DNA from: Patescibacteria group bacterium
Lineage (GTDB): Bacteria; Omnitrophota; Gorgyraeia; Gygaellales; Profunditerraquicolaceae
Assembly (NCBI GenBank): GCA_035506195.1
Contig: DATJPV010000041.1
Location: 112-64,111 of the forward strand
Direction of reading: 5' to 3'
DNA length: 64,000 nucleotides
Made by a program: the position numbers and the translations under genes. This document shows positions 11,613 through 55,400 of this stretch, piece after piece. Below the pieces are notes generated by a model. It did not search any database. It worked only from the letters and a program-made list of their open reading frames with translations, and was not told where the DNA came from. Each line of letters opens with the position of its first letter. Position 1 is the stretch's first letter.

Positions 11613-13055
11613 TCAGATCTGGCTATAGGCGTTGCGGCACACCAACGCGGCCATCCCTAAGGAAACGGCATCTTCCTTGAACTGCGAAGGAATGACCTTG
11701 ACTGTCTTGGCGGTCTCACTGAGCGTCCACCTGCGCACCGTCGCAAGGAGGGTGTCAAAAAATACAAGCCGCGATTCCTCATCCACCTTGCCGACGATAA
11801 CGACATCGGGGTGAAGCAAGTTGACCAGATAGGCGATCCTTACCCCGAAGCGCATCCCCATTTCTGCGGCATTAGCCGCACTCAATGGTTCTATCTCATG
11901 CCTAAGAATGCAGTTGTCCTGCAACCAGCAATGCGCCGGGTCTTGGTGGTCCTTATCCCTTGAGGCGGCCAACCACATGGAGAGCTTATTGTTCTGCGAG
12001 CCTCGGTACACTTCCCCTTTAAGCATCATGCTGAAGTCGCCGCCTGAGCCCTGGCCGTCAACGCCCACGTATATGATATTATGCCGCTTAGACAACTCAA
12101 AGTTAAGCCACTTTTCCGCAAGGATGCTGGCTACGGAACCGTCTTCCACGAGTGCGGGGAGCCCAAGCTTTTCCTCAAGCAGGTCCTTGAGGCTGGCGTC
12201 ATAGCCGTTGGTCTGGCCGGTCAACCCAAGGCAGATGCCCATCATGCGGCCGCGGTCTGCCTCGGAATCTTTGACAGCCTGGTGCACCAGCGTAATCAGG
12301 CCTTCCTGCAGGCTCTTGCCTGCAGGTTTCAAGGAGACCGTCTTTTTAGCCATGACGCGCAGGACAAAGTCCGTCACCAGAACGGTCATATAATTTTTGA
12401 CAAAGTTGACCTCGGCGCCCACCATATAGCCATACTCGGCATTCAATTCCAGGAGGCTGGGGCGCCTTCCTCCGGAAGACTCATCGAACCCCCGTTCGTA
12501 GATGATGCCTTTCTTTTTGAAGTCTTCGATATAATTCGAGATGGTCACGATGTTCAAGTCTACTTCCTGGGCGATCTGGGTTTTGGAAACGGTATTTTGA
12601 CGACGCAGGACATCGAGTATCTCCAGGTTCCTCTTCTCGCGGTCAACCAGCTGCGTATCCGGGGACTTCAGGGATTTTAGCCTGGGGCAGGTATGGAAAG
12701 AAAGTTTCGTCAAACAGCTATCCAGTTTTTTTCTTTCCTCCGGGAATGCCTCGGTGAATTTGACTCCTATGCCCAGGATCTTATCTTCTTGCAGGCTTCT
12801 CTTTATCCAGCTGAGCTGCCCCAGGAACCTGACCGCTCCGCGGGTATCGGGGATCTCGATCTCCATCTCAATCTTCTTGCCCAGGTCCTCTTCCTTGAAA
12901 AGCCGGTTAATAAAAAGCCCGCCTTCCCCGATGTCGCCGGTAGGCGCATCGCAGGTCAGCGGGCGTTTTATGTCTAAAAACTTAAACCTCGTAGGCAAAG
13001 CGACTTTATAACGTGGCGCCTGCCTTCTTTCCAGTTTTACGTTCTGTTCACCCAT
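11613..13055 (-). CDS. PilZ domain fused to a ROK family (NagC/Mlc-like) transcriptional regulator
   Basis: The N-terminus carries PilZ signatures: RRQAPR (RxxxR) and DIGEGGLF, a D-x-S-x-x-G-like motif. The middle has a MarR-like HTH (ILDVLRRQNTVSKTQIAQEVDLNIVTISNYIEDF). The C-terminal half has the ROK sugar-kinase fold. Confidence 0.7.
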   Translation of the reverse strand: MGEQNVKLERRQAPRYKVALPTRFKFLDIKRPLTCDAPTGDIGEGGLFINRLFKEEDLGKKIEMEIEIPDTRGAVRFLGQLSWIKRSLQEDKILGIGVKFTEAFPEERKKLDSCLTKLSFHTCPRLKSLKSPDTQLVDREKRNLEILDVLRRQNTVSKTQIAQEVDLNIVTISNYIEDFKKKGIIYERGFDESSGGRRPSLLELNAEYGYMVGAEVNFVKNYMTVLVTDFVLRVMAKKTVSLKPAGKSLQEGLITLVHQAVKDSEADRGRMMGICLGLTGQTNGYDASLKDLLEEKLGLPALVEDGSVASILAEKWLNFELSKRHNIIYVGVDGQGSGGDFSMMLKGEVYRGSQNNKLSMWLAASRDKDHQDPAHCWLQDNCILRHEIEPLSAANAAEMGMRFGVRIAYLVNLLHPDVVIVGKVDEESRLVFFDTLLATVRRWTLSETAKTVKVIPSQFKEDAVSLGMAALVCRNAYSQI

Positions 13056-31972: not shown

Positions 31973-32827
31973 TTAATGCGCCAACTTCCTTACTGAATTA
32001 CGCGAAATGATCTGGGTATTGTTGAGCAGGACCTTGACCGGCTCCTTTTCTTTCTTATCGATGAGATTCTTGAGGTAGCGCACACCCAGCCTGCCGACTT
32101 CATACAACGGCTGCTTAACGGTAGTCAAGGAAATCAGGCTTGAAGAAGCCAGGGGTATATCGTCAAAACCGACCACGGACAATTCAGACGGCACACCGAT
32201 GCCGCGATGCTTGGCCTCTTCGATCAGGCCGATCGCCATTTCGTCGCCGGCCACAAAGACCGCGGTCGGAACGGGCTTTAACTTCAAGATCCTCTCCAGG
32301 CCCTTCTTGCCGGCATCCTTGGTCCAGTCGCCTTTAAGTATATATTCGTCGATAACGGGGATGCCGTTTTCCTGCAGGCCTTTCTGGTAACCCGCGAGCC
32401 GGTCGATCCCTGCCTGAGCGTGCAGTTTACCGGTGATGGTAGCGATATGCTTATGTCCGATCCTGACCAGATAGTCTATGATTTCGCGCGCAGCCGCTTC
32501 GTTGTCTACCCCAATGCAGTTATCTTCTGATTTCTTATCGAAATAATTCAAAATGATATACGGGATCTTCTTTTCCTTGGCCTTTTCTACCAGCTGTTCG
32601 TTGCCCATGATATCCGCAAACAGCAAGCCCGAGGCAAAAGAAGTGCTGAATATCTTCAGGTCCATATCGGTCTTCTCTCCTTCGGCCTGATGGGCAATGT
32701 GGATCAGGAGATCAACGCCGAGGCTCAGCGCCCCCTTGCTGGCGCCCTGGATGAGCTCCATAGTATAGAACGTCGAGAACATGTGGGGATAATGCGGCAG
32801 CACTAGTCCGAGGGTTACCTTTTTCAT
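31973..32827 (-). CDS. LacI-type periplasmic-binding-fold ligand-binding protein lacking the N-terminal HTH DNA-binding domain
   Basis: It begins directly at the LacI core (MKKVTLGLVLPHYPHMFSTFYTMELIQG...), with no HTH. Its ATG at 32825-32827 overlaps the TGA of the upstream gene (ATGA overlap). Confidence 0.65.
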   Translation of the reverse strand: MKKVTLGLVLPHYPHMFSTFYTMELIQGASKGALSLGVDLLIHIAHQAEGEKTDMDLKIFSTSFASGLLFADIMGNEQLVEKAKEKKIPYIILNYFDKKSEDNCIGVDNEAAAREIIDYLVRIGHKHIATITGKLHAQAGIDRLAGYQKGLQENGIPVIDEYILKGDWTKDAGKKGLERILKLKPVPTAVFVAGDEMAIGLIEEAKHRGIGVPSELSVVGFDDIPLASSSLISLTTVKQPLYEVGRLGVRYLKNLIDKKEKEPVKVLLNNTQIISRNSVRKLAH

Positions 32828-33963
32828 CGTACCTCCTTGACGCGGCACAGGCATCCGCCCAATCCGGAACCGGGCCCCAGAAAGGCGTATTTGCCGTCTT
32901 TAAGACGCTTAAGGTCAAAACCGAGTTTTATGTTTGCAAGCCCCGCAGCAATGCCGTCGTTGACGATATGGAGATGAAAATCAGGGAAGCCGCATCTTGC
33001 TAATTCATTTTCTACGGCGGCAGTAAAATGAAATCCGTCCTTTTTTGTAAAAAAGGGCAGGTAATCCGTCGAACCGAGTAGATAACCGTCAGCGGAGGCC
33101 TCGCCGGGTAAGGCCAGGCCTACGTGCGTGGAATACGCGATACCTATTTTCTCGGCGTGGGCCTTGGCGCGAATGATCAAACCGGCTAGCTGATGGATAA
33201 CCCTTGCGCGCAACTGAAGGCCGAGGCTCTTCTGCTTTGCAAAGCACTTTATCCGGCTGTTGCTTCGGACCGTCCTTACGGAAAACCTATATTTCCAGAG
33301 AAAAGACGTGTTTTTAATTATACCACAGGTCCGGGGATTTACCATTAAAATCCCGACCCCTGTTTTGTCCCTGCCTAGATCGATGCTGATAACGCCGGCT
33401 CGCGAAAGGCCCCTGGCTTTAGTCTGACGGCAAGCAACTTCCAGCACATTGACCGCCGCGCCTAAAAAACCCGATTCTTTACCGGGGAATCGCGCCTTGG
33501 TCACAGCGATATTGCCAAGCCCTTCCTTGGCGAGACGGTCTTTGATGCCCGCAACGACGATGCTGCCGGTTTTCCCCCGGGAAACGCCGCCGCCGATAAT
33601 GACGCAAGAAAGCCCCTTCCAAAGAGCGGACTCTTGCCTTGTCCAGCCAGGCTTATACCCCCGGCCAGCTGCCAAGGCCGCAATGCCGCTTCCGGCACTC
33701 GCGGCTACTTCCTGTACTATCGCAAGGGCGGCTTCCTGCGCCTTCCTGTTGCGCCGGTCCAGAAGCGCCAGGGTCACCGACATACCGGTGATGCCGGCCT
33801 TGCCTTTTTCAATATAACGACCGAAAATTCCCGGCCTTAATCTAGCTTTTTCCTCCAGGACGCGGCCGCAAAATACGTCTTCAAAAATCACGCCGGGATG
33901 CGCAGGGTCGATGCCGCGGACATCCCAGACCTGGCCGTCTCCCAGGACGGTTATTTTTTTCAT
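32824..33963 (-). CDS. ASKHA superfamily (ROK/glucokinase-like) sugar kinase homolog with an atypical N-terminal domain
   Basis: The C-terminal half has ROK-like motifs (ISIDLGRDKTGVGI, VNDGIAAGLA, FLGPGSGLGG). The N-terminal roughly 185 aa are not a canonical ROK N-domain. Confidence 0.45.
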   Translation of the reverse strand: MKKITVLGDGQVWDVRGIDPAHPGVIFEDVFCGRVLEEKARLRPGIFGRYIEKGKAGITGMSVTLALLDRRNRKAQEAALAIVQEVAASAGSGIAALAAGRGYKPGWTRQESALWKGLSCVIIGGGVSRGKTGSIVVAGIKDRLAKEGLGNIAVTKARFPGKESGFLGAAVNVLEVACRQTKARGLSRAGVISIDLGRDKTGVGILMVNPRTCGIIKNTSFLWKYRFSVRTVRSNSRIKCFAKQKSLGLQLRARVIHQLAGLIIRAKAHAEKIGIAYSTHVGLALPGEASADGYLLGSTDYLPFFTKKDGFHFTAAVENELARCGFPDFHLHIVNDGIAAGLANIKLGFDLKRLKDGKYAFLGPGSGLGGCLCRVKEVR

Positions 33964-34010
33964 GAAGTAAAGAATTTATCACAAGTTTTGGGGGCGGTCA
34001 AGCTATTTTA

Positions 34011-34373
34011 TCAGGCTCGCAGGGCCCGACCCACTCCCATAAAGTCAACTTTGTCGAAACAGACGCCGACCCGGTATTGCCCCATATCTTGAGGCTCAAT
34101 CCAAGCCACCCTACCCCGTTCATAGAGGGGTTCGTGGCCATCGGGAATCCTCAGCCAGATATCCAGAAACGCATCGGGCCTTAAGGGCTGGTCGACGATC
34201 AGGCTGACTCCTTTTGCGCTCATGTTGACGACTTGACCGACGACCTCTAGGCCTTCCTGAGGGGCCAAAACCCTCAAAGGAAACTGCGCTTGAAAGCGAC
34301 GGAATATCCGCCGGTCATCCATGGCCGGTTTTAAAAAATCCTTTACCAGATGGTCCCACCAGGGCTTATCCAC
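34011..34373 (-). CDS. Stand-alone PilZ domain protein (predicted c-di-GMP receptor)
   Basis: The canonical motifs RRIFRR (RxxxR) and NMSAKG (D/N-x-S-x-x-G) are present. It uses a GTG start and lies 53 nt downstream of the giant ORF stop. Confidence 0.8.
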   Translation of the reverse strand: MDKPWWDHLVKDFLKPAMDDRRIFRRFQAQFPLRVLAPQEGLEVVGQVVNMSAKGVSLIVDQPLRPDAFLDIWLRIPDGHEPLYERGRVAWIEPQDMGQYRVGVCFDKVDFMGVGRALRA

Positions 34374-34426
34374 GCCTGACTCCTTTCTGTTTATTATATG
34401 CCTAAGCCAAAAAATGTCAAAACAGT

Positions 34427-37400
34427 TTACGGGCTTTTCTTCTTCGCAGGCTTAGCCAGCCACACCTTTGTGCCCCGCGAATCGACCCCGTAATGCGCAT
34501 CGGGGTTAAGGCCTCCGTGCCCCGGCACAATAACTACGGTGTAATCCTTAAGGCGGCCGGTGTGCTGCTGATACCATGCAATAATAGTGTTTAGATCGTT
34601 TATTTTCTGCGTAAATGCTTTTTGGCGAAGATTGAACAATCCTTGCAGCGATCCGAATTCGACAAGGAGCGTATCGTAATCCAAAATGCCGGACACCCCG
34701 CCCTCCCACTCTTCGGTGACCACTACCCCTCTTCTGACTATCAGCCTATAGGTTTTTGCTTTTTTCCTGAAGAACACCATCAATCCACCGGAGGTATTAA
34801 GGTGTCCTTCGACGACCACTACGTTCTGGCCCCATTGCTCTTTGACTTGACCGATGAGACTTTCGTGATAACCGTATCCCTTGATATTGCCTTTCGGTTC
34901 ATAAAAATCGTAGCCGTAATACTGCGCAAGCCACTCATAGAGATAGTGGTTGGCGACCGGCTCGGCATAGAACCTTGCCTTTTGTTCTGTGGCGTATGTC
35001 TTGATGCCCTCAAGGATATGCCGGTACCCCTCCGCTGCGGTCTCTTGCGGCGGATTTTGCGCTGCCGGCATGCATAATGCCGTAGCCATAACCACGGTAG
35101 CTATGAATGACACGGGCGAAGAAACTGAACCGGAGGGGCCGCGGACTTCCGCGATATGCGCTTGATCCACCAATGCATCGATGATCTCTTTTACTACCCC
35201 CTTGGCATCAAGCGTACGAATTGTTTCCAGTTTCTGGACAAACACATGAGACCACGGCTTGAACCCTTGCCATACCTCTATGATCCGCTTGCCTTGAGTA
35301 ATAAACTCATGTACCTGGCTATCCGTTAACGAGCCGCCCTCTTCGGGATTTTCAACAATAAGCCGCAGCCGGTTAAATAGATCATCCTCCTCTTCCTTTG
35401 TGGCCAATGCTGCCAGGCTCATCTCGAGCTTGTCCTTGACGTCTTCTCCCATCGGCGAACTGCCGGAGACTGCAAACGAAGGTATCTGTTCAAAAAAACC
35501 TCTCTGCATTGCGTATCTGCCTATGATCTTAAAGGCAAAGTCAAACGAATCTGCGCCAGAATCAAGGTGAGTGTGCCGCAGGGGCGGAATGGCTTTTATT
35601 TTCTCTGTTTCAAGCAGATAGAGTATCCTTACGCCCAGGTCTTCTTCTGCGCGCGTGAAGGGGACGTGCACGATCCTGTCGTATCTGTCGTAGGTATCCG
35701 TATCGATCCATATTTCCTGAATGTCGTCAAGGGACAGGGGAACAATGATCTGCGGGTACGGATCTACTATGCCGGTATATCTATTTCCTACTACCCTTAA
35801 GGTGGCTTTACCTTCATGCAGGAACCGGTTGAAGGTAGCCGTAGAAACGACAAAGATAGCCGGGCTTCTGGAGCGGTCATCAAATTGACCGATCGCATAT
35901 TGATGCACAACCCGGGTCAGGGGGATTTTCCCCGTAAGGTAGTTGTTTAAAATGACTTCGTCTAAACCGTCCCTGCCGTGATAGAGCAGGCCCGGGGCGA
36001 ACTCCAGGGGCTTGTTGCTCATTACCAGCTCCAGTTGTTCGGGCCTGGTGTCGATCCCGTCTTCGGGGTCCAGCAACGCATGATCCTTCATAACCGCCAC
36101 ATCCCCCAGCGGCGAACTGGAATCCGTATCGGAATCCCCGCGTCCTTTAAGCTGCAGAGACATCTGCTCGATCTGCGCGGTTAACAACGCAAGCTTCTCT
36201 TCAATAGGGATGCCTTTGGTAAGGCATTCAAGCGCACCCCGCGCATACAATGATATATGCTCATACCGCACGTCATGATAAAGCGTCGACAGGCGCCTTA
36301 ATTGCGCAATGAAGCTTCTGAGCATTTTTTCAAGAATAAGGACCTCGTTTAACCGTTGCGGCCCCTTGTTTTCCTTCAAGGACGCAAGCTGGCGCTCGAT
36401 CTGCGCTATCCGCTCGGCGGGATCTCCTCCGGAGGCATCTTTCCTTTTCAGCGGCGAGCTGGCGCCGATACGGCTTTCCTTCTTTTTGGCTTCCCCCTTC
36501 CTTTCAAACAAGAGCAATTCGGTCATCGGACAGCCTACCATAGAGAATGCATACAGGAGGGTATCGGGGCTATTATCGGAATCCAATTCATCGTCAACGT
36601 CGATCTGCCTCAAGAGCGCCTGGTAATCCTGCCTAAGGTACTGTTCTATTTCGCCTCTTTTTTTCACGCCTCTTGGTGAGAATAATTTGCTGAACGTATT
36701 TTTTTCATCGTCATTGGTGGGCGTATTGAGCACAACCAAATAACCCGGCCTTGACAAAAACGGGATGCTCATCGATAGCACCTTCCGGAAATCAACGTAA
36801 TTAAGGACATCCGAAAGCGCAATAATATCGAACACTCCCTTATACCGCTGCCAGAACAAGCTTGTATTCCGATGCCGCCCGGAAACGTCAAGAAACCGCT
36901 TAAAGTTACGAGGCAGCCTTAATTGGTCGAGCTTTTCTGCGTCGCCCTTGAGTATAACGAGGTTTCCTTCCTGGCGGATATCTTCGGGAAGGCCGACATC
37001 GACCCCTACTACCCGAGTGCGAGAGCCTGAAAGCTTCAGTTCCGTACTAGCCTCCCCGCCATGACAGCCGATATCCAAGATCAATACGGGGTTACGTTTT
37101 TGCGACAGCCTGAATTGAACGAGGTGTTGCACCAGAACCCTCACTCCCCACTTCCCGCCTGAGTCAGAATAATTCCGCTTCCCGTACAGTTCTTCCCATT
37201 TCCGATGGTTTTGCGCCGGTGAGCTGCTTTTTTGAAAAGCCTCCCGCAAGCCGCGTAACCGTACAAGGCAATTGTTCGCATCCGGGTCCAGCAAGGTATC
37301 ATTCCAGCCGGGCTTCTGACATATCGCCTGAAGTATCGACTCTATAAACAGCTCGATCCTGTCCGGCGGGATCGGATTGCCCCGTGCATAAAGCCGCTGC

Positions 37401-52400: not shown

Positions 52401-55400
52401 GGGTTCCTCCAGGCGATCGTCACCCTTGAAAGCTGAGCCAGCGGGTCGTATTCGAAATCGATACGCGTAATGGCTGCCTTCTTGCCAATGAAAGCGATCT
52501 GCCGCACAACCTGTTCGTTATCGCGCGCCTCCCCTGCCTTGCCCTCTTCTCTTATCTGCATCAGCTCATGCGTTGTTTTTCCGGTCACCTGCATGCCTTC
52601 TGCCGGCGAACTGGACTGGCCTTCTTTTTTCTTCGTGAGCAATCCGATGGTCAGGGCTATTGTTGCCGCCCCCAAGAACAAAGGAAGGACCCAGGAATGA
52701 CTATCCTGCTGCACCATCCTCCTATCCCGGCTTGGCATTTGGCCTCTAAGGTGATAACGATTGTCGCCAAGATAAGATGCTTTCGGATTAAATAAGCTGC
52801 TTCTTCTCCATGCCCGTGCCGCAAATGCATTGGCAGTGGTGCTTTCAATGCGCCAGCCGGCAAATTGGCCAAACTCCGGATGTGTTGCCATCCAGTAGTA
52901 TAGAAGAGGCATGACCCGCTTGTGTTGGTACGCTTCTTCTACAAGGGCAACGTCTCTTAAGAGCTTGCGCTGCTGTTGATCGACGGCTAAAGAAAACCCG
53001 CCGACTATTTCTCCGTCATAATCACGCAGGAGCTCAATCCAATACCCGATGATTCGATCATCGTAGCCTTTGACTGCCCGATCGCGCGGCCAGACCCCCC
53101 TGATTGCTAAGACCTGGCTTACGATGTCATGAATCGCATCGTTCGGTAAACGAACAAGCTTACGTAACCCCTGGTCGATTACCTGCTTCTGTGCACTAGA
53201 TAGCTGCATAATCAACTCTACAGGCTCAATCACCGCCGGTGAGCTGGAAGCCTCATTGTCCAGTGCTTCCTGCTGGATCCGGATTGCTTGATACGCAAGC
53301 TCTAATTCTGAAACAGGCCGTTCGCGCAATCCGGCTTCATGGCGCAGCCTGTCGCGTATGGCCTGGTTATCGCGGAACAGCCTTCCTAACCATGCTCCGT
53401 GCAGGCGCTGGCTTTGAACGTCGGCACCGATAAAGAGCTGTTGTGCGGTTACGCGCAACTTAGGGGCATGCACGTACTCCTGAGCCTGTAAAGCCTCCCG
53501 GGAAATACGCCTCAATACAGAGCTATGGTTTTTTAAATTGATATCCCATATATGCCACTCATCTTCAGCCGTCCTGAACATAACATCGATATCAGAATCA
53601 AGGGTAAGAAAACCGTTAAAACTGCCTATCAGCCAGATCTGTCCGGCATGCAAGATCTGCCTTATTCTTTCTCCGGGCCCGACTTCCCCGAGGCGCATCA
53701 ATGCCGATTCAATTTGACCTTGGCGCAGCGTTGGTGTCTCTAATACTTTGAATATCTTCCTGAGTAGGCGCCGGTCAATAAAAGGAGTCGCGAAATAGTT
53801 TTCCAGGGATAGCTGTAATGCATGTTGCCAGTAGGGCGTTTCCGGGCCCGTCATGTGCATCAAAGCCGCAATCTCTTTGGCAACAGCTGCGGGGGTAACG
53901 ATCCCGGCCTTACGCTGATTGTCAATCCATACCGCCAGTTCAAAAAGATCCCTTTCTCCTTCTTTGATGGCCATCTGTAACATGCGCGCGGATTCCTGCG
54001 CCGGAGAGCTAGCCTGGCGACGCCGGTCCTTTGTTGCGGATCGGACGGACATATAAAACGCTTCGTGCCTGGCAGCAAGGAGCTCATACGTATATTGCCC
54101 CATAATGAACCTTCTGCCCTTTTGGCCCATCCGGATCCTCAATTCCCTATTCGCGCAGAGTTCCTCAATGCGCGCCGCAAAACCATTGATATCGCCTGCC
54201 TTGACAAGGAACCCGGTCTCGCCCGGTATCATTGCGGCCGCGATGCCGCCCGCATCAAAAGCAACCACCGGCTTTTCCATCGCCTGCGCTTCCAGGAGCG
54301 CCCTGCCCAGGCCTTCGCTCGTACTGCATAGCACCGATACATCGGAAGCGGCAATGTAGTCTCTAATCTCTTGCTGCGAAAGCCCGCCGGTAAAAATAAC
54401 GTTGTCGTCCAAGCGGCATTCCTTGACAAAAACGACTACCCTTTCCTTAAACACCGGGTCGTAATCGTTACCCGCAAAAATAACCTGTACCGGCCTGCTA
54501 CGGTCTCTGAGGATACGCGCTATCTTAAGCAGGTCAAGGTGGTTTTTCTCGGGGCTGATACGCCCTGACAAAAGCACTACCGGTGTATCGAAATGTACGC
54601 CGGCATCCCGGGCTTTTTTAGGATCAAAGAACTCCGGATCGATGCCATTCCCGAGGTTCACAAACCGCCGACGCAGGTACCACGGCACACTCTTTTCGGA
54701 AATACCGCTGATGCCCGCCGCCCAATGCACGAGCATACGAGTGGCGATATCCCTTAATAATATGTTCCCGCCGTGATTCTCCAGAAGGACTGGAATGCCC
54801 CGCGCATAACTTTGGCGCATCAGGAGCGCTGCCTCCGGAAAGGCGATCGAATGCACCATGACCAGGTCAATACGGTGTTGTGCGAATATTTCGTTTAACC
54901 GAAGCTTGAAGGTGGCGATATCCAGATTAATGATGCCGCGGCTATAGAACCTTCTGATAAGAGGCAGGCGCTGCATCAAGCCCATGAATCTGGTGGTGAC
55001 GAGCCAGTAGCGAATGAGTCCTTTGACGCCTAACTGCTCGAAGAATCTATTGAGTATACTGAAGAAGTGGTTTTCCGCGCATTTTGTGCATTGCGCGATG
55101 CTATTGTCGTGCAAAAGGACCGGCACGCGGATCAAGGTGCCCTTACCGATCTGCTCGCTTCTCACAAAAGCGCCTGCCGCATCCGTGGTAAGATATAACT
55201 GAATAATGGTTACTCGGTTCCGCCTCAACAAGGCGGCGTTGAGCCCCTGTAAATGCTGTTGCAGGCCGCCAAGGTTATCGTAGGAATAAGAAAACCGCAG
55301 GATCGTCAGACCATCTAGGCGGCCTTCTGCCGGAGAGCTGCTCTGTGCGCGGCTCGCAAAGGCTGCATGTATCGCCTCCGTAAACCGGCGTCCCATCTCT

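Follow-up and report, generated by a model that had tools for sequence, protein, structure and literature searches.

The 64,000-nucleotide stretch of Omnitrophota DNA analyzed here (contig DATJPV010000041.1; hereafter the window) carries on its minus strand a giant open reading frame (ORF) composed of gene-sized modules joined at Ser-Ser-Pro (SSP) junctions, and the last of these modules begins with a short hydrophobic stretch that resembles a signal peptide. We put at about an even chance the reading that this stretch serves the last module as a Sec-type export signal of its own, which was inherited with the module and is shortened relative to that of its closest relative. By its sequence features it appears to be an ordinary Sec-type signal in an unusual position, and the copy in the window looks like a mediocre, shortened version, which suggests a signal that is real but weak. 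The elements at and after the last junction are as follows:

35114 to 35122, minus strand: last SSP junction, encoded TCT TCG CCC (from the translation of the frame)
35060 to 35113, minus strand: signal-peptide-like stretch VSFIATVVMATALCMPAA, residues 9630 to 9647 (from hydrophobicity, AlphaFold2 and homology to P0001, the closest relative)
35039 to 35059, minus strand: Pro/Gln-rich linker QNPPQET, residues 9648 to 9654 (from alignment; AlphaFold2 confidence is low to about residue 28 of the module model)
34460 to 35038, minus strand: predicted folded alpha/beta domain of an unassigned family, residues 9655 to 9847 (from AlphaFold2 and homology search)

The last module spans 35113–34430 (228 residues) and ends at the stop codon of the giant frame, 34429–34427. 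A first-pass annotation of this DNA had described the last SSP at 35122–35114, the hydrophobic sequence behind it and a module of about 228 residues, and both the coordinates and the translation were confirmed; the sequence VVIVPGHGGLNPDAHYG, which it had placed directly before the stop, is present but lies 19 residues upstream of it. Immediately after the SSP stands a GTG codon (Val 9630, 35113–35111), from which the translation continues as VSFIATVVMATALCMPAAQNPPQE, and the segment that crosses the junction reads ...GSVSSPVSFIATVV.... Around the last junction, GPSGSVSSPVSFIATVVMATALCMPAA forms a run of 27 residues devoid of D, E, K, R, H, N and Q, the longest such run in the 9,857-residue frame, with the uncharged run starting 0 to 2 residues after the junction. 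The hydrophobic core, FIATVVMATALCM (35107–35069), has 13 residues, a Kyte-Doolittle value of 2.29 and a 12-residue sum of −0.95, and its length fits the h-region of about 7 to 15 residues of substrates of Sec and signal peptidase I (SPI). A candidate signal-peptidase site, PAA/Q (the slash marking the cleavage point), follows after 35060, with Ala at −1 and Pro at −3. Hydrophobicity sums are given on a rough biological-hydrophobicity scale. On this scale the best 19-residue sum of the stretch is +3.1, compared with +4.2 for the genome's own lipoprotein signal and −2.9 to +0.9 for transmembrane anchors in the window; the stretch falls short of the span of about 18 to 20 or more residues of a transmembrane signal-anchor. 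Five 13-residue windows in the frame reach a Kyte-Doolittle value of at least 2.2, and the chance that one of the five starts within 5 residues of any of the 32 junctions is about 0.08 by our own estimate. By position alone the placement is therefore only mildly unlikely, and it is the relatives that would lift the stretch above chance.

The closest relative, P0001 (locus L003), is 62–72% identical to the last module and shares with the window two downstream genes, a PilZ gene and a 379-residue gene; it forms the C-terminal end of a frame that is truncated by a contig end. Its junction aligned to the last one of the window is canonical (GCC AGC TCG CCG GTT) and is followed by a Sec-like signal, SSPVGNGYGAK-LLSVFVTVVALCIGSYAYA/GQ, to whose LLSVFVTVVALCI the core in the window is homologous. 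Similar signals were found in three further relatives. In P0005 the junction leads into SSPA...LSRRAFISRSLLGAAGLYLSSVYPQAWA, which is twin-arginine-like (SRRAFIS); in P0009 (locus L005) it is followed by SSPVGDPYYMDRREFSALLGLGFWFLPHAFA/T, also twin-arginine-like with a partial motif (DRREFS); and P0003 carries KRKNKTPLLIIPLIILSFLGFSLNA/Q, with no SSP in the 340 upstream residues available. The twin-arginine motif S/T-R-R-x-F-L-K is missing from the copy in the window. All five proteins (the window copy, P0001, P0003, P0005 and P0009) share an Ala at −1 and have basic residues toward the N-terminus; a Lys/Arg n-region is present in the four relatives, whose residues −3 to −1 read AYA, AFA, AWA and LNA. 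The signal-bearing module lies inside the chain in P0005 and P0009, where another junction follows it and no stop-transfer helix stands between. In locus L005, residues 214 to 425 form a complete ECF sigma-factor module (Sigma70_r2 and r4_2) between two SSP junctions; this sigma-factor module thus shares a chain with the twin-arginine-like-signal module of P0009.

To which compartment the last module belongs can also be judged from the domain that follows the stretch. An AlphaFold2 model of the last module, built on an 11-sequence alignment, reached a mean predicted local distance difference test score (pLDDT) of 81.4 and a predicted template-modeling score of 0.79. Residues 1 to 24 of this model, which comprise the SSP and the stretch, lack secondary structure and stay under a pLDDT of 50; the folded part sets in at residue 29. 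The family alignment (11 sequences) agrees: its conserved core opens some 25 residues past the junction, and the part before it varies in length and sequence. The stretch is therefore predicted to lie outside the folded domain, whose conserved motifs are EGHLN, EFGS and PGHGG (the last at 34525–34511). A HMMER scan of 1.84 billion representative proteins yielded 10 relatives, nearly all within long proteins; a profile search (A1) of a 5.8-billion-protein collection returned only P0001 again, and scans of metagenome contigs (A2) and of genome contigs (with a single protein) returned nothing. Two relatives were found in the species-genome collection, both in Candidatus Omnitrophota metagenome-assembled genomes (MAGs). 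The domain had no match in Pfam/NCBIfam (E up to 1), in a PDB profile search or in Foldseek searches against PDB and BFVD, so that by the model it appears to define a small unannotated family with a confident predicted fold. P0001 carries the JGI label N-acetylmuramoyl-L-alanine amidase (Amidase_3), a name that no Pfam/NCBIfam profile backs at E up to 1; the one reminder of Amidase_3 is the PGHGG motif, which resembles the beginning of that family. The domain precedes LysM in P0006 and P0010 and SLT in P0007, both of them peptidoglycan-related extracytoplasmic domains. Because such domains adjoin it in relatives, an exported location is the best-supported reading for the C-terminal domain, as judged from sequence.

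Several findings weigh against an export signal at this site. As encoded, the stretch does not lie at an N-terminus, as a Sec/SPI signal would, but at residue 9630 of at least 9,857. Only V-S separates the SSP from the core, leaving no Lys/Arg n-region, and the only A-x-A-like site is PAA/Q, with Pro at −3. The core is also less hydrophobic than the genome's true N-terminal signals, with a 12-residue sum of −0.95 versus −2.2 to −3.6. Compared to P0001, the copy in the window lacks a 6-residue n-region and a 13-residue c-region, and its PAAQ aligns with a PAAQ inside the predicted mature part of P0001. No signal-like stretch directly precedes the domain in P0002, P0007, P0008 and P0010; in P0002 and P0010 the domain comes after a block of transmembrane helices. 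Finally, hydrophobic stretches are not enriched after junctions in general (5 of 57, versus 4–6% of random positions). The signal thus appears to be a property of the last-module family and not of junctions generally, and the argument rests on this one module family together with one tail-anchor-like helix elsewhere in the frame, described below.

The frame that ends with this module runs without interruption from 64000 to 34427 on the minus strand, encodes at least 9,857 residues and continues past the window end. The gene, of about 30 kb, comprises about 33 gene-sized modules, or about 37 when decayed junctions are counted. SSP occurs in frame 32 times, compared to about 1.9 occurrences expected from composition, and it is absent from the other 26 ORFs of the window (11,042 residues in total). 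The junction consensus is [S/A/V/T/G]-S-S-P-[V/A/L]-[E/Q..]-[E..], and 28 of the 32 are encoded as AGY TCN CCG, mostly with C before and G after. The first Ser of the junction is encoded by AGY at 31 of the 32, versus 36% among all Ser codons; the last junction is the sole one that deviates from the AGY/TCN/CCG choice at all three codons. Independent assemblies from ENA and Logan contain the 3′ part of the frame with 4 and 0 mismatches, respectively, and the region is therefore not an assembly artifact. One Logan contig, L002 (window 35102–33930), starts 11 nt downstream of the GTG after the last junction, which may be coincidence or reflect low coverage or variation in the signal region. Four further sites, each one base off the motif, split the longest modules and were read as decayed junctions:

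about 60610 (residue 1131), minus strand: decayed junction SSA
56992 (residue 2337), minus strand: decayed junction RSP
51496 (residue 4169), minus strand: decayed junction SSS
44695 (residue 6436), minus strand: decayed junction SSS

Where a check was possible, modules look like whole proteins by sequence comparison. Pfam and PDB matches identified an adenylate kinase, a HATPase, a GT1 glycosyltransferase, two response-regulator receivers, an HTH_17 domain and several methyltransferases; most modules had no family match, and a homology search with modules M11 to M14 (1,344 residues) gave no match at E up to 1e-5. The adenylate kinase module aligns with residues 2 to 184 of a 186-residue kinase and begins at a retained Met just after the decayed junction ASSAIDTAD, this Met lying 6 residues on from the SSA and aligning with residue 1–2 of stand-alone adenylate kinases. 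The alignment of the GT1 module to solved glycosyltransferases stops 9 residues short of the module end, and when extended backwards it would place the module start near the junction. A second targeting-type element closes a GNAT-like module:

52634 to 52696, minus strand: membrane-type segment SWVLPLFLGAATIALTIGLLT, residues 3769 to 3789 (from hydrophobicity; 19-residue sum +0.25, transmembrane-like)

This helix, the only transmembrane-grade segment of the giant frame, is followed by KKKEGQS and then by the SSP junction at 52612–52604, so that it ends 8 residues before the junction in the manner of a tail anchor. Cytoplasm-type modules flank it on both sides, with the adenylate kinase, GT1 and HATPase before and the receivers, HTH and methyltransferases after.

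The junctions themselves are near-uniform in codon usage within a genome and differ between genomes: the window, L003, L004 and L005 use AGY TCN CCG, L006 uses TCC AGC CCR and L007 uses AGY AGT CCT/A. At the last junction, the first Ser is encoded by TCT in the window versus AGC in the relative, with all three positions of the codon changed and the SSP kept. Because SSP is kept across genomes with different codons, it is probably under selection at the protein level, although selection on the protein motif alone does not appear to explain the codon uniformity within a genome. For the same reason we rejected a purely DNA-level meaning of the junction, as other genomes keep SSP with different codons; a codon- or tRNA-specific bypass like that of viral 2A was also discarded, because the codons differ between genomes and the 18 upstream residues are not conserved. 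Homology between the window and P0001 does not reach upstream of the last junction: the following module is 62–72% identical, whereas BLASTP failed to align the preceding one (window 35114–35452 versus L003 1–222) at any E up to 100, which points to junctions as boundaries of module exchange. Two NCBI MAG contigs that consist entirely of giant frame end exactly at a junction, L004 (6526–6536) with ...AGCTCGCCGGT and L005 (3577–3586) with ...AGCTCTCCGG; such ends fit assembly-graph branching, and module order may vary within populations.

If the stretch acts as an export signal, its 13-residue core would engage the Sec pathway on leaving the ribosome, and the C-terminal domain of about 205 residues would be moved across the cytoplasmic membrane, where it would either be freed by signal peptidase near PAA/Q or remain tethered. 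The giant chain would be cut at or next to the SSP junctions by some protease, which would bring the signal to within 2 residues of a new N-terminus. With such cuts, N-termini would be expected at V9630 or Q9648, that is, peptides beginning VSFIATVV... or QNPPQETAAEGYR. We infer the export, the signal-peptidase site and the junction cleavage from the sequence features described above.

A signal within the chain need not imply a cut. The statement in the first-pass annotation that an internal signal peptide makes sense only at an N-terminus was too strong, as type II membrane proteins and flavivirus polyproteins, among others, use internal signal or signal-anchor sequences that function with no free N-terminus. 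We therefore considered that the stretch is an uncleaved internal signal-anchor of N-in/C-out orientation, which would tether an uncut cytoplasmic giant and show its last domain in the periplasm. Internal signal-anchors are a well-known device; both here and in L003 the module closes the chain, so that nothing downstream would be mislocalized; the charges fit this orientation (Arg upstream, Glu downstream), and published surveys take Omnitrophota giants as single membrane-anchored chains (10.64898/2026.06.07.730766). However, the hydrophobic core extends over only 13 to 16 residues, and a 19-residue sum of +3.1 does not resemble that of a transmembrane segment; in P0005 and P0009 this module stands inside the chain, and the next junction follows without an intervening stop-transfer helix; and together with the helix at residues 3769 to 3789, an uncut chain would expose receivers, HTH and methyltransferases outside and leave the last domain inside. 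We consider an uncleaved anchor possible but rather unlikely. Less likely still is that the stretch is a decaying relic, the remnant signal peptide of a once separate secreted protein that no longer directs export here. Such decay would fit the loss, in the window copy, of the basic n-region and the AYA/G c-region of P0001, the n-region without Lys or Arg, and the non-standard codons found only at the preceding junction. Yet the core is kept and homologous in two genomes that differ by about 30–40% (TVV.A.ALC[MI]), SSP is kept despite the AGC versus TCT change of the first Ser, which argues for selection on the protein, and the frame is intact to the stop codon.

The remaining explanations can be weighed more briefly. 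Internal initiation, proposed in the first-pass annotation for the vicinity of 35113, would give the stretch a normal N-terminal position if translation started at the GTG at 35113 or a nearby ATG. The GTG does sit directly after the junction, and Met occurs 11 times within 10 residues after junctions, a mild excess over the 6 expected. However, the 17 nt preceding each of the seven in-frame ATG, GTG or TTG codons at 35245–35071 hold no Shine-Dalgarno match of at least 4 nt, whereas matches of 5 to 7 nt precede 8 of the 12 real gene starts in the window; there is no minus-strand promoter-like site upstream; most junctions continue with GTT, GCN or CTN, which are not start codons, and L003 has GTT at this very position; and initiation at the ATG of 35089 or of 35071 would cut the hydrophobic core short. 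Initiation at this site is thus very improbable. GGAG/GAGG is weakly enriched 10 to 19 nt after junctions, but this is explained by the Glu codons there, and initiation by way of these sequences was discarded. The annotation had also likened the segment to either a secretion signal or a lipobox, and the two halves of that comparison fared differently. The likeness to a signal peptide stood, given the absence of structure in the AlphaFold2 model and the clearer Sec and twin-arginine translocation (Tat) signals in relatives, but TALC is not a lipobox. A lipobox needs Gly, Ala or Ser at −1 (PROSITE PS51257 rule). If Cys 9643 were lipidated, as the Cys behind the hydrophobic run and its conservation in P0001 (VALCI) might suggest, positions −3/−2/−1 would read T/A/L in the window and V/A/L in P0001, and the pattern [LVI][ASTVI][GAS]C admits neither Leu at −1 nor Thr at −3. 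A true lipoprotein signal in the window reads LMSAS/C (gene 21349–19634), and P0005, P0009 and P0003 have no Cys at the corresponding place; lipidation here is extremely improbable. Equally hard to credit is a buried hydrophobic strand or helix of the C-terminal domain, which the annotation had named as the competing outcome. Hydrophobicity is all that speaks for it; AlphaFold2 leaves residues 1 to 24 without secondary structure and below a pLDDT of 50, and most of the family either lacks the stretch or has a different one, of varying length.

Cutting at SSP is plausible and, on the sequences compared here, favored over an uncut chain, because an uncut chain with two membrane helices would put receivers, HTH and methyltransferases outside the cell, because the signal-bearing module of P0005 and P0009 is internal and followed by a junction with no stop-transfer helix, and because SSP is conserved across genomes despite different codons. 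Modules that resemble whole proteins also point, indirectly, to cutting. A broader proposal, which we hold at somewhat less than even chances, is that the multi-enzyme giants of Omnitrophota are true polyproteins, equivalent to operons, that would be cut at [small]-Ser-Ser-Pro-[Val/Ala/Leu] into gene-sized proteins, each targeted by signals retained at the module ends (Sec or Tat after the junction, a tail anchor before it), with the junctions serving also as points of module exchange between genomes.

The arrangement can be compared with several known systems. With Sec/SPI signal peptides the stretch shares an uncharged 13-residue core followed by small residues (A-A) and a Pro/Gln-rich mature start, and its relatives have complete n-, h- and c-regions with Ala at −1 and −3; it differs in being encoded about 9,630 residues into the frame, in having no basic n-region and in its Pro at −3. 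Type II signal-anchor proteins similarly combine an internal hydrophobic segment, a basic N-terminal side and an exported C-terminal domain, but the core in the window falls below what a stable span requires in both length and hydrophobicity. A further parallel is offered by internal signals of the flavivirus type (capsid/prM), where a signal lies within a polyprotein with a presumed protease site on the cytoplasmic side and a signal-peptidase-type site on the far side, and where the modules of one chain have different destinations. In contrast to these, the system described here is bacterial, has the junction [S/A/V/T/G]-S-S-P-[V/A/L] and is known from sequence alone. MARTX toxins and processed multi-effectors also carry many unrelated enzyme modules per chain, and MARTX modules are separated posttranslationally at short inter-module sites. 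MARTX proteins carry their own cysteine protease domain, which cuts after Leu. Unlike them, the giant frame shows no cysteine protease of its own, no repeat regions and no sign of type I secretion.

Directly after the giant frame's stop, the minus strand carries a sigma-70-type promoter match ahead of the PilZ gene:

34393 to 34420, minus strand: TTGACA, 16 nt, TATAAT (12 of 12 positions matched)
34373 to 34011, minus strand: PilZ gene (Pfam match; GTG start with AAGGAG 3 nt upstream)

No terminator-like site was found in 34300–35600, which includes the gap between stop and promoter. The genes downstream of the giant frame are ordinary in size, with the PilZ gene followed by a mannan/sugar-utilization cluster that contains GH113, GH130, GH94, MFS and PGM genes. 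The 379-residue gene after the PilZ gene (33963–32824, minus strand) looks ROK/glucokinase-like, with no Pfam match at E up to 1. PilZ and ROK-like parts are fused in one 480-residue ORF at 11613–13055 (minus strand), and they may also occur as separate neighbors within 32824–34373 (minus strand); both arrangements adjoin the mannan/sugar cluster.

Giant Omnitrophota frames have been published, including a class rich in methyltransferases, HATPase, GT1, receivers and radical SAM proteins (PMC10066038; 10.1101/2023.11.21.568195; 10.64898/2026.06.07.730766). A published catalog comprises 5,761 Omnitrophota proteins with at least 10,000 residues. The frame in the window matches the size and content of the multi-enzyme giants (at least 9,857 residues; adenylate kinase, GT1, HATPase, receivers, HTH and methyltransferases), and it shares with these Archaeovorin-type proteins a frame of tens of kilobases with methyltransferase, HATPase, GT1, receiver and GNAT-like content and scattered membrane segments. 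The difference lies in how the product is seen, as the papers treat it as one membrane-threaded chain or only speculate on cleavage. Posttranslational cleavage was speculated upon in one of them, which stated that the cleavage points were unknown and that this blocked further analysis (10.1101/2023.11.21.568195); another read the giants as single membrane-threaded chains and suppressed internal signal-peptide calls as artifacts (10.64898/2026.06.07.730766). None of the three mentions a Ser-Ser-Pro junction or module-level signals, and our literature searches for such a junction or for polyprotein processing in Omnitrophota found none.

The conserved junction motif, the module-level targeting signals that abut it and the homology break that falls exactly at a junction make it directly testable whether the Omnitrophota giants act as one chain or as cut products. 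An export signal in the last module suggests, without proving it, that the giant protein is cut into separate proteins. If so, Omnitrophota would possess a bacterial route to dozens of unrelated proteins from a single frame, and the published membrane-topology readings of their giants would change.

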